Positions 53,909 to 64,000 of a stretch of DNA of 64,000 nucleotides are shown here, piece by piece (the first letter of the stretch is position 1; each line of letters begins with the position of its first letter). This stretch comes from a bacterium (GTDB lineage: Bacteria > UBA10199 > DSSB01): assembly GCA_048499175.1 (NCBI GenBank), contig JASOAK010000004.1, forward strand, positions 36,373 to 100,372. The letters run 5' to 3'. The position numbers and the translations under genes were made by a program. The notes beneath the pieces were generated by a model that ran no database searches, was not told the origin of the DNA, and saw only the letters and a program-made list of their open reading frames with translations.

Positions 53909-54047
53909 TCAAAATTCTAGTCTGAAATAAATTTAAAATGGTCTGATCGACAAGTCAACCCTGTTTAGCACAATCCCGCAACCCTTCCGCCCTCCCGCCG
54001 ATAATAAGCCACACGCACGGGTGGCACGCCTAACGCGGAGCCACTCC

Positions 54048-56876
54048 ATGTCCGATATCGATATCTCCCTCCTTCACCGCCTCGTCCAAAGCGCCTTAGC
54101 CGGCAACGTCGAACTGCAGGCCGTCACCCTGCCGCTCATGGCCGCGGCCGACTCGGACGGGCAGCCCAACGAAGAAGACCTGGTCCTAAGCGACGCCGAG
54201 ATTCAACGCTATGTCACCCGGCTGCGCGAGGAGAGCCGCGGGAACTTAAGCGTCCTTACCCGCAATCGCGACGAGCTGGCCGGCACTCTCAGCGCGGCAC
54301 GCACTCGGTTGTCCGACGCGCACGCCTCCGAAACCGTCCTACAATACCTAGAGCTCGCCGCCTCCCAGGACGGCGACGCAGAAAACTTGAGCGCCGAAGA
54401 AATCGAAATGCTGGTCACCGAGCTGACCCAAGCCAACGAGCAGGCCGGGCAACTCAACGCCGAAACCCTGATCTCCGAGGTCAACACCCTGTTGGACCAC
54501 CTGCGCGCCATGGAGGCCGAGGTCCCGGAGGCCTTTCTCCCCACCGACGAGGCCGCCCGCCGCGCCCCCATCGACCTGAATTTCCTCAAGCACCTCCCGC
54601 CCACCGTCTTCGCGGGCGAGGACGAGCAGAGCGTCATGCTGCAGAATCTGCTGCAGATCGCCGGCGTCGACATCAACGACCGCGACGCCGACTGGAGCCT
54701 GACCTTCGACGAGCTCCAGACCTTCATCAACGACCTTCCGGAAGAGGCCCGCGCCGAATTCCCCGAGGCCGAGCTGACGATGGCCAATTTCCGCTTCCTG
54801 GCGCTCACCCTGCGCGAGGAGATCAACGCCGCGATGGGCGCCGCCGTCGCCGAGGGCGGCGACGCGGCCGAGCACGGGGTCTCCCTTCAAGCCCTGATGG
54901 AGCGCCGCTCCCAGATCTCCGACCCGCGCGTCGACCAGCTCTTCGAGCTGGCGGGCGACGACGGGGTCCTGACCAGCTTGGACGTCGAACGTCACCTGCG
55001 GCGCATGGAAGAAGAGAACCCCGGCTTCCTACAGGGCATGCTGGGCGAGGCCCCCGCCGCCGAGGGCACCGAAGAGCAGACCGATCTACAGCGCGCCACC
55101 GCCTTATTCCTAGCCGGCGCCCGCGCCCTCGCGGCCGACTACGGCGCCGAGGCGATCTCGCCGTCCACCGACGCCGCCGGACCCGTTCCCTTCGACCGCA
55201 ACCTGTATATCTCCCGCCAAGTTTTAGGCGACCTCGAGCGCATGCGCGCCGGCTTCACCCACCGCGAGCGCCAGTACGCCGAGGAGAACACCATCGTCGG
55301 CACGATCGACTTCATCACCTGGGTCTGCACCTTGGGCGGCGCCCTGACCTGGATCGGCGCCGGCGACGCCCCGCGCCAGTCCGAGGAAGACATCGCCGAG
55401 TTCGGCGAGAACATCCTGCCCCGCGTCGGCCCGACCTACCGGCACCTGGTTCGCGAATTTGTCGAGATGCACGACCGCGAGCGGGGCGAGGCCCTGCAGG
55501 AGCTGCGCCGCCTGATCGAGCATCCGCCCAGCGATTTCACCGGCGAACGAACCATCCCGAACGCCCTCGAATACTTTCGCACCCACGACGACGACCTGCT
55601 TCCCGGCCGCAACGCCCGCTACTACGAGCTCTTGACCGACGAGACCTTCCAAGCCGAGCGCCTCTGGAACATCCGCACCGAGCGCAACCCGCGCCGGGCC
55701 GAGGAGATGTGGCTCTCGCTGGCCAACGACCTGCGCGAGGGCACCACCAGCTGGTGGTCGACGGGCACCTACGCCGAAGGCGTCCGCAACCTCGACTTCG
55801 CCCGCGCCATCCTCCACGCCCTGCACCGCGAGTCGACCGACGAGGGAATGCGGAACCGCGCCCATCACGTCCTTCAGGACAGCCTGGGCACCGACATCAC
55901 CGACGACGAAGGCAACGTGGTCGAGGAGGGCGGCGGCGAATTCGGCATCTGGCCGCCCGATTGGTTCCGCAACTACAGCGACGAGAACGAGGACGGCGCC
56001 GCCAGCGACGGGGTCCTACTCGTCGCCAGCTTGGCGACCGGCGCCGGGGCCTTCTCTTTCGGCCGCGGCGCGATGACCACCGCCGGCCGCAGCGCGATCG
56101 GCGCCGGCTTCCTGAGATTCTTGGGCATCCGAGGCACCCAGGCGGTGGTGACCGCCGGGGCGGAGACCGCCGCGACCGAGGCAACCGTCGCCTCCTCCGG
56201 CTGGTTCAGCCGCCACATGGCCAGCTGGGCCGCCCGCCGCGTCGCGGCCGCCGAGGCCGAGCTTGCGGCTGCCACCACCGAGGCCGAGCTCGCCGCCGCC
56301 CGCCAGGCCCTGATCCGGGCCCAAGGCGTGCAGCGCATCCTGACCTCGCCGACCATGCTCACCACCGCCGCCGAGACCGTCGCGCCCAATGCGACCGGCT
56401 GGTGGGGCCGCATCGTCGCCGCCCATCCGCCCATTTCCGAGGCCCTGGCCCGCGCCGCCGCCGTGACCAACGCCGAGACCCGCGCCGCCGCCACCCGCGC
56501 CCTCATGGCCCGAGCCAGCGTCGCCACCCTGGAAAACATCAGCCTGCGCGGTCTCGGCCGCGGCCTGCGCTGGATGAGCTACGAGGGCATCGTCTCCTAC
56601 GGCATCGCGGGCTACGTCTTCCAGCACGCCCCGCGGCACAGCAACCACCCGCTGATCTTCGACCGCGAATACGAGCTGAGCCTACCGGAGGGCGAGGCGC
56701 CCAGCGCCCGCGCCGCCGTTCCCCCGGCCTCCGACGCCCATGCCCGCGCCCCCCGGCGGCCCCGGGATCGCGACCGGGTTCGACGGCCCAACCCCAGCGC
56801 CGCGACCGGGACCTTGGTCCCCCTTGGCGGCGATGCGGGGGCCGAGAGCCCGCTTCGGGGCGAAGGCCGGCGATAA
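54048..56876 (+). CDS. Large acidic hypothetical protein (~940 aa) with Ala/Gly-rich hydrophobic C-terminal segments
   Basis: Long ORF with a conserved upstream TCCCGCCGATAA element. No recognisable catalytic motif. An upstream GTG at 54021 is an alternative start. Confidence 0.6.
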   Translation: MSDIDISLLHRLVQSALAGNVELQAVTLPLMAAADSDGQPNEEDLVLSDAEIQRYVTRLREESRGNLSVLTRNRDELAGTLSAARTRLSDAHASETVLQYLELAASQDGDAENLSAEEIEMLVTELTQANEQAGQLNAETLISEVNTLLDHLRAMEAEVPEAFLPTDEAARRAPIDLNFLKHLPPTVFAGEDEQSVMLQNLLQIAGVDINDRDADWSLTFDELQTFINDLPEEARAEFPEAELTMANFRFLALTLREEINAAMGAAVAEGGDAAEHGVSLQALMERRSQISDPRVDQLFELAGDDGVLTSLDVERHLRRMEEENPGFLQGMLGEAPAAEGTEEQTDLQRATALFLAGARALAADYGAEAISPSTDAAGPVPFDRNLYISRQVLGDLERMRAGFTHRERQYAEENTIVGTIDFITWVCTLGGALTWIGAGDAPRQSEEDIAEFGENILPRVGPTYRHLVREFVEMHDRERGEALQELRRLIEHPPSDFTGERTIPNALEYFRTHDDDLLPGRNARYYELLTDETFQAERLWNIRTERNPRRAEEMWLSLANDLREGTTSWWSTGTYAEGVRNLDFARAILHALHRESTDEGMRNRAHHVLQDSLGTDITDDEGNVVEEGGGEFGIWPPDWFRNYSDENEDGAASDGVLLVASLATGAGAFSFGRGAMTTAGRSAIGAGFLRFLGIRGTQAVVTAGAETAATEATVASSGWFSRHMASWAARRVAAAEAELAAATTEAELAAARQALIRAQGVQRILTSPTMLTTAAETVAPNATGWWGRIVAAHPPISEALARAAAVTNAETRAAATRALMARASVATLENISLRGLGRGLRWMSYEGIVSYGIAGYVFQHAPRHSNHPLIFDREYELSLPEGEAPSARAAVPPASDAHARAPRRPRDRDRVRRPNPSAATGTLVPLGGDAGAESPLRGEGRR

Positions 56877-57189
56877 AATTCCGAGGGCCCTCCTTCGCCT
56901 TCCTTAGCAACCAATCCGCCCTTGGGACGATATTTAGTACCGAGGGCATTGTTGAATGGGACTGGACACGGGGGCAGAGAATAAATGGGGGCACAGACCC
57001 ATCCCGTTTATTTCCTTCCTGTAATTTGCGGCCAATCGTCCGCATAACGTCCAGAAATCACTGGGGATTTTAAATTCGCATCCTGCGGACCGGTTTTCTG
57101 CGTCCGAAGGGCGCGGCAACGGGACGAGACGTCTCGGCCGCGGCATGGGCCGCGTTCCGAGTCGGCAGCATAGGTACGGGAGGCACACC

Positions 57190-63626: not shown

Positions 63627-63674
63627 GTAGGGGCCGTTCGCGCTTGTCCCCGGCTGAGGGGGAACGGCCCCTAC
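63627..63674. repeat. REP-like palindrome, second copy of the 61451 element
   Basis: GTAGGGGCCGTTCGCGCTTGTCCCCGGCTGAGGGGGAACGGCCCCTAC. Confidence 0.75.
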
Positions 63675-63860
63675 GGAGCTGGCCAACTCTCCAAAAGCCC
63701 GAAAAGTTCATTAACATCCGTAGGATTCGTTTTTTTGCAAAAAAATACTCCGTTATATCAATAGGATAAACCTTCACTCACAACCTAGACCCATTCCCGC
63801 CGATAACCCCCCCGACAAGGGTTTTCGACCGCCGGGGGTAAGGCGGTTGTGGGGGCACAA

Positions 63861-64000
63861 ATGACGGCGCCGTTCAAATCCGTTCCAACCGGGGCGGAGC
63901 AGCTTTCTTCCTTTCAAATCTATCAAAACGCCTGCCAGGCCGAATTGAACCGCCGGACCGCGGAAGTTTTTTCCGCGCCCGCGACTTTCGATCCGGCGAA
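63861..64000 (+). CDS. Hypothetical protein, family C copy 2 (N-terminal fragment; runs off the window)
   Basis: MTAPFKSVPTGAEQLSSFQIYQNACQAELN parallels MSGPIKAVPAGAEQTQSFQFFRDTVQAELD. Confidence 0.55.
   Translation, partial: MTAPFKSVPTGAEQLSSFQIYQNACQAELNRRTAEVFSAPATFDPA

Follow-up and report, generated by a model that had tools for sequence, protein, structure and literature searches.

The gene array

The right end of the window, a 64,000-nucleotide (nt) stretch of bacterial DNA (positions 36,373 to 100,372 of contig JASOAK010000004.1), carries between positions 53950 and 64000 of its plus strand an array of large orphan genes, here called A, B1, B2, C1, and C2. The original prediction, made from the letters alone, described five consecutive same-strand genes, and the coordinates of the open reading frames (ORFs) bear this out. 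Gene A (54048–56876) encodes an acidic protein of 942 amino acids (aa) counted from its ATG; B1 (57190–58926) encodes 578 aa; B2 (59478–61262), an ancient paralog of B1, encodes 594 aa; and C1 (61646–63559) encodes 637 aa. The fifth ORF, C2 (63861–64000), is cut by the window end after its first 46 codons, and the array continues further than was supposed. L001, a public contig with an exact coding match to C1, extends beyond the window end and holds the complete C2 (2397–4253, 618 aa) and, 86 bp after it, a sixth gene, D (4340–6304, 654 aa). The full array is thus A-B1-B2-C1-C2-D, with five of its six genes reached by the window. Its spacers within the window measure 313, 551, 383, and 301 bp, not the 110–380 bp given before.

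The same arrangement recurs elsewhere. Six genomes were compared, namely the window joined with L001, and the contigs L002, L003, L013, L014, and L015. Their common layout begins with a TAtT-DctPQM-CDF transporter block and a variable slot, followed by A, two or three B genes, two C genes, and D. The set of large, predominantly helical proteins is fixed at one A, two to three B, two C, and one D. Wherever the contig extends that far, atpE/B/I lie downstream of the array on the opposite strand. In L003, a 3489-aa protein of the HEAT/Arm/LRR repeat type (16398–21770) sits at the position of D.

At 63–72% G+C, spurious long ORFs appear on both strands, and the array could in principle be an artefact of this composition or of mis-assembled repeats. 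Against this, independent NCBI, JGI, ENA, and Logan assemblies agree on the genes and their order, full-length homologs are present, the ratio of nonsynonymous to synonymous substitution rates (dN/dS) is far below 1, and the AlphaFold models are confident across large parts of B1 and C1. The genes are real, and the artefact explanation is excluded.

Two new protein superfamilies

Full-length identity is 48% between B1 and B2; C1 and C2 share 45% identity at their N-termini and 43% as complete proteins, which confirms the two paralog pairs. Deeper relationships emerge from more sensitive comparisons. By BLAST, A looks unrelated to B. Profile–profile comparison shows otherwise: residues 466–727 of A (nt 55443–56228) align with residues 194–484 of B with an hhalign probability of 96.4% (E = 1.2e-9, 248 columns). 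This reveals a shared core of ~250 aa, whose common motifs include NLxFAR and (F/Y)R(N/D)(Y/W)SDE. The C proteins are internally duplicated, as had been noticed, with residues ~10–129 matching 153–268 (z = 24–26 against shuffled sequence). The N-terminus of D is one further copy of this C module (BLAST E = 3e-5, z = 12.6), with weaker support in profile comparison (E = 0.0036); outside this N-terminal module, no relation between D and C was detected. Nor did profile comparison relate C to A or B. Since A and B share a core, C and D share a module, and C is unrelated to A/B, the six proteins resolve into two new superfamilies, A/B and C/D.

Each family has a recognizable layout. Ahead of its core, A carries a conserved AADxDGxxNxED motif (nt 54144–54179). 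A stretch rich in Gly and Ala starts at nt 56016, and a C-terminal hydrophobic helix leads into the sequence FDREYEL (nt 56658–56678), beyond which the tail is not conserved. In B1, the core held in common with A (aa 194–484) is followed at the C-terminus by a conserved helix and the tail DREAxFERYPDPT. C1 opens with two α/β modules bearing conserved cysteines (aa 10–129 and 153–268), continues with a helical, weakly hydrophobic central part of low model confidence, and ends in a helical domain (aa 470–610) that is modeled with good confidence. The hydrophobic segments of C, previously placed at its C-terminus, are in fact central (~residues 280–460) and too weak for transmembrane helices. Hydropathy reveals neither signal peptides nor clear transmembrane segments in the array proteins, and no segment in those of the window genome reaches 1.6 on the Kyte–Doolittle scale. 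The possibility that these proteins are transmembrane or exported by Sec was dropped on these grounds.

Searches of Pfam, NCBIfam, PADLOC, and PHROGs with the six proteins and their distant relatives gave no significant match. With A, C, or D as query, profile searches of the PDB came back empty, and structure searches found no significant fold match for the array proteins. A cystatin-like α+β fold is among the nearest known comparisons. The suggestion that this is an undescribed set of proteins has therefore held up in sequence and in fold, and sensitive profiles assigned none of its members to a housekeeping family.

An EF-hand loop in B

The only recognizable feature in the array proteins is an EF-hand loop in B (B1 aa 74–85, nt 57409–57444; B2 aa 76–87, nt 59703–59738). 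The earlier statement that the genes have no identifiable motifs thus stands for the library searches, which gave no significant match, and fails for this loop. It follows the pattern D-x-[ND]-x-[DN]-x-x-[LVI]-D-x-x-E of EF-hand proteins of the calmodulin and troponin C type, and its ligand positions are conserved among 35 family members: D at position 1 (33/35), N or D at position 3 (29/35), D or N at position 5 (34/35), L, V, or I at position 8 (34/35), D at position 9 (34/35), and E at position 12 in all 35. In the B1 model, helices 60–73 and 83–90 flank the loop in a helix-loop-helix, so that B has both the ligand positions of a canonical 12-residue Ca2+ loop and its two helices, the latter as modeled. 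Profile searches of the PDB with B gave weak matches, nearly all of them to EF-hand proteins and confined to profile positions ~59–100, the best with E = 0.0017. The resemblance to calmodulin and troponin C ends there. B has one clear loop in ~580 aa, no second canonical loop was found in it that could form an EF-hand pair, the remainder of the protein is unrelated, and the Pfam EF-hand_1 score of 17.4 bits lies under the gathering threshold of 25.4.

A promoter shared by all array genes

Upstream of every array gene lies the motif GCAAC(C/T)-N15-CCGATA(A/T)(T). Searched as the strict pattern CAAC[CTA]-N16-GATA[ATC][TCA], it occurs five times in the window against 0.15 expected, always on the plus strand and once per gene. 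All 34 array genes of the six genomes are covered, 31 by strict and three by near matches; elsewhere in the fetched DNA there are only about six more matches, several of them upstream of other orphan genes. The putative promoter of A spans 53979–54005 (CAACC-N16-GATAAT, in its extended form GCAACC...GCCGATAAT) and ends 42 nt upstream of the ATG. Those of B1 (56908–56934), B2 (59270–59296), C1 (61554–61580), and C2 (63781–63807) end 255, 181, 65, and 53 nt upstream of their respective start codons, and that of D lies outside the window (L001 4259–4285). Overall, this distance is 36–67 nt for A, C1, C2, and D and 97–262 nt for the B genes, which therefore have long leaders.

Hairpins typical of intrinsic terminators follow the two B genes. 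Behind B1, the predicted terminator (59031–59066, plus strand) consists of AACCCGGA...TCCGGGTT and a T-rich tail, and is preceded by a 3′ box, TTACGAAAGCAyCCCG, which recurs after B2. The B2 terminator (61360–61399, plus strand) is formed by AGCCCGGA...TCCGGGCT and a T run, with an AT-rich block behind it. Because every gene has its own promoter and terminators stand after B1 and B2, each array gene looks like a transcription unit of its own under common control. One promoter type on every gene points to a co-regulated set rather than to a toxin or defense island. The regulon may even reach beyond the array to largely uncharacterized proteins, since the motif also fronts other orphan genes, standing just upstream of a 244-aa one in L013 (2196–2222, minus strand) and a 726-aa one in L009 (7934–7960, minus strand).

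In this genome of ~63% G+C, AT-rich blocks (53900–53945, 61385–61430, and 63700–63775) are found just upstream of the A, C1, and C2 promoters. They may be UP-element-like or serve as binding sites for a regulator.

Distribution and evolution

Among 5.8 billion protein sequences, relatives number 36 for B, 17 for C, and 14 for A, all of them from uncultured bacteria labeled "Deltaproteobacteria bacterium" or simply "bacterium." The B profile retrieved 60 clusters only from 1.84 billion cluster representatives, and a scan of 185,579 species genomes yielded seven loci in four metagenome-assembled genomes (MAGs). Only a small group of uncultured bacteria carries the array. Where it occurs it is kept together: B and C, whose co-occurrence across taxa had been singled out for checking, stand in the same array in all six genomes.

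The array genes pair one to one as orthologs across genomes, in an order that has stayed fixed as the proteins diverged to 35–48% identity. This pairing places the splits between B1 and B2 and between C1 and C2 before the splits between species. The array is thus not the "rapidly duplicating" locus it had been called, as both duplications are older than the species that carry them. Compared with a close relative (~90% identical DNA), the array genes have dN/dS values of 0.128 (A), 0.191 (B1), 0.097 (B2), and 0.152 (C1); the values of the neighboring transporters DctM and CDF are 0.067 and 0.099. The array genes are under purifying selection close to that on these neighbors. Over long distances, A–D retain only 35–48% identity, compared with 70–87% for the transporters, and together with the low dN/dS this indicates that the array evolves faster than housekeeping genes, yet under clear constraint. 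The array is vertically inherited and chromosomal.

Relatives of single array genes also occur on their own. A third subclass of B, ~50% identical to B1, stands alone in L007 (1435–8175) and L008 (706–7406). It is accompanied by none of A, C, and D and lacks the strict promoter motif, and in two MAGs its neighbor is a conserved protein of ~1577 aa that combines methyltransferase and class I/II aminotransferase domains. A second locus in assembly GCA_046346845.1 (L004 2990–14404) carries an A paralog, 35% identical, next to a 2125-aa protein that bears thrombospondin type 3 repeats. Neither B nor C genes were found at that locus. The array promoter motif does occur there (12565–12591), on an unrelated 581-aa orphan that follows the A paralog and starts with MTPP like B.

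Flanks and toxin–antitoxin borders

Toxin–antitoxin modules border the array of the window genome on both sides. On its left lies a Phd-VapC pair (53238–53908, minus strand), whose PIN and Phd domains were confirmed, and on its right, after D, a MazE-Doc pair (L001 6450–7116). The original prediction saw in this setting, and in the tandem paralogous genes, a resemblance to effector, immunity, or polymorphic loci. Large unannotated tandem paralogs between toxin–antitoxin borders are indeed what polymorphic toxin loci of the Rhs and CDI type and toxin–antitoxin-flanked defense islands have in common with the array. The comparison between genomes does not support the link. Phd-VapC occupies the slot between CDF and A in the window and L003; L002 and L013 have unrelated genes there, and in L014 and L015 the slot is empty. 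Phd-VapC is thus missing from L002, L014, and L015, and the toxin–antitoxin modules at large are absent or different in these three genomes. Since the slot varies so freely, the pairs are incidental, and the borders of the array seem to be insertion hot spots. Between them, the array site is syntenic, with housekeeping genes as its flanks rather than a mobile island.

The array itself fits a polymorphic or defensive role no better. Its genes are fixed orthologs, in order, with old duplications and under purifying selection, and they are conserved over their full length including the C-terminal motifs, in place of the variable C-terminal toxin tips of polymorphic loci. No toxin, secretion, or trafficking domains were found in them, and no small ORFs resembling immunity genes lie between them. 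None of the six proteins matches a PADLOC family at E ≤ 0.1, and none matches PHROGs. A polymorphic toxin/immunity locus, or an anti-phage defense island tied to the flanking modules, is therefore very improbable, and this explanation is already largely refuted. An orphan cluster beside toxin–antitoxin genes, then, need not be a defense or toxin island.

The remaining genes of the window are ordinary: transporters, an RND pump, a P-type ATPase, and RNA-modification enzymes. A connection of the array to the CDF transporter, or to a magnetosome-like or biomineralizing system, was considered and dropped, as no magnetosome-type domain was found among the Pfam-scanned ORFs of the window; the CDF gene is adjacent because of general synteny.

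The sigma factor and the proposed regulon

Over 25 array sites, the −10 element of the shared promoter has the consensus gcCGATAat. This is close to the sigma-28 consensus −10, GCCGATAA (PMC12784957), which is also given as the "flagellar" consensus TAAA / GCCGATAA (PMC8325347). A, C1, and C2 agree with it at all eight positions, and B1, B2, and D at six of eight. The spacing agrees as well, with the AA of GCAA standing 15 nt from GCCGATAA as in sigma-28 promoters. The promoter could thus be read by a sigma-28 (FliA/WhiG)-type alternative sigma factor.

Two known systems offer parallels. Among sigma-28 (FliA/SigD/WhiG) regulons, those with several flagellin genes likewise have tandem paralogs, each with its own promoter and sometimes its own terminator; their −10 is of the GCCGATAA type, ~15–16 nt from an A-rich −35, and their products lack Sec signals. 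The array differs from them in its −35, which is GCAAC rather than TAAA, and in its proteins, which are 580–940 aa long, belong to two unrelated superfamilies, and show none of the Flagellin_N, Flagellin_C, Flg_bb_rod, or rod and hook domains in Pfam and NCBIfam, even at E ≤ 1. The second parallel is the attack-phase program of Bdellovibrio bacteriovorus, where the FliA motif TTAAG-N16-CCGATA drives most attack-phase genes, many of them uncharacterized and non-flagellar (PMC3627812). The geometry of the array promoter resembles this motif, as does its position before non-flagellar, uncharacterized genes. The −35 and the spacing are off by a few bases, and no homology of the array proteins to any Bdellovibrio protein was found. 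The attack-phase genes belong to a single cell state (PMC3627812); the organism studied here is uncultured.

Taken together, these observations lead us to favor, tentatively and at somewhat short of an even chance, the reading that the array is an alternative-sigma regulon of single-gene transcripts, encoding predicted co-assembling and Ca2+-responsive parts. A sigma-28 (FliA/WhiG)-type factor would read the shared promoter on each gene and switch on all six together, as a "late" or cell-state-specific regulon comparable to flagellin paralogs and Bdellovibrio attack-phase genes. The products would then assemble into one Ca2+-dependent structure at the envelope, or would be exported across it by a non-Sec route. 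A structure of this kind is suggested by the fixed set of proteins, their lack of Sec signals, and their only weakly hydrophobic, Gly/Ala-rich stretches.

Several points weigh against this proposal. The −35 element, GCAAC(C/T), agrees with the TAAA of sigma-28 at only two of four positions and resembles the AAC −35 box of extracytoplasmic function (ECF) sigma factors equally well. Pfam scans of the window and the fetched flanks found no sigma factor and no flagellar, pilus, or secretion gene. The regulon and its transcription units are predictions from DNA motifs, and co-assembly is argued only from conserved co-occurrence and shared regulation. Lastly, the faster long-distance divergence of A–D would also fit surface or host-facing proteins.

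As the −10 and the spacing fit and the −35 does not, the assignment to the sigma-28 type is an inference, with an ECF sigma as the main alternative. An ECF (group 4) factor reading the promoter would make the array an envelope-stress or envelope-remodeling regulon. ECF promoters combine an AAC −35 box with a CGT −10, and AAC is contained in the array −35, while the −10 starts with CG and the spacing is 16 nt. ECF regulons also usually include their own sigma/anti-sigma gene pair, and no such pair was found next to the array in the window and fetched flanks. The array −10, (G)CCGATAA(T), agrees at six to eight of eight positions with the sigma-28 consensus (PMC12784957) rather than with CGT. 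On this balance an ECF factor is quite unlikely.

A different fate for the same proteins would be delivery to prey or host as secreted effectors, translocators, or toxins, by a non-Sec route such as type I, type VI, or type III secretion, the last of the flagellar or injectisome kind. In that case the role of the EF-hand would be to detect Ca2+ of the host, and that of the Gly/Ala-rich stretches to insert in target membranes. Such a role would suit large proteins without signal peptides, the EF-hand in B, the fast divergence of A–D relative to neighboring housekeeping genes over long distances, and the 3489-aa HEAT/LRR protein at the D site in L003; a sigma-28-type regulon is also what drives the Bdellovibrio attack-phase program (PMC3627812). 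Neither the hydropathy nor the genetics favor it, however. The stretches lie below the level of membrane-inserting helices, and no secretion apparatus, chaperone, or immunity genes were found nearby in the window and flanks. Effector repertoires usually vary between genomes, whereas the array shows strict one-to-one orthology, fixed order, and dN/dS of 0.10–0.19. With such fixed orthology and no secretion context, a secreted-effector role is possible but fairly unlikely, and less likely than the regulon of co-assembling parts.

That regulon, if extended to a definite product, might build a lineage-specific cell structure such as an appendage, a surface layer, or a device for predation or attachment. 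Such a structure would be made of two new superfamilies, Ca2+-dependent, produced solely in a sigma-28-type "late" state, and independent of the classical flagellar proteins. We regard this extension, in all its parts, as doubtful. Should the regulon itself be correct, six abundant, co-regulated proteins with two folds that lack known relatives would form a conserved module in a never-cultured lineage. The shared promoter offers a handle on it. It delimits a regulon that searches of complete genomes can look for, predicts transcription start sites, and points to a sigma factor whose presence and targets would place the module in motility, development, or predation.

Leaders, repeats, and other features of the window

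The spacers had been described as containing terminator hairpins, repeats, and conserved boxes, and all of these are present. The leader of B1 holds an element of ~105 nt (56955–57060, plus strand), predicted to fold into three stems, with an outer stem CUGGAC/GUCCAG around a long terminator-like hairpin and a second hairpin, UGCGGC/GCCGCA. It is 87% conserved in five B1-type leaders whose proteins are 61–87% identical. It has no match in Rfam and none elsewhere in the fetched DNA, and a covariance model built from it recovered only its own input sequences. The element could be an attenuator or a riboswitch-like control element.

What had been called repetitive extragenic palindromic (REP) elements corresponds, in the window, to two different repeats. 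One is an 86-nt unit in two tandem copies, 83% identical and each with a hairpin, in the spacer between B1 and B2 (59066–59254, plus strand). Rfam gave nothing significant on the array region; for this repeat the sole database match, to ftsZ-DE (E = 0.18), scores 25.9 bits and so stays under the cut-off of 72.2. The other is a palindrome of ~55 nt with 21-bp arms and a CCGTAGGGGCCGTTC core, found after B2 (61447–61504) and after C1 (63624–63677), which are its two full copies in the window, both within the array.

Far from the array, at 4229–5785 on the minus strand, a 518-aa ORF with a reverse-transcriptase domain (RVT_1, E = 1.6e-19) may belong to a group II intron or a retron-type element.

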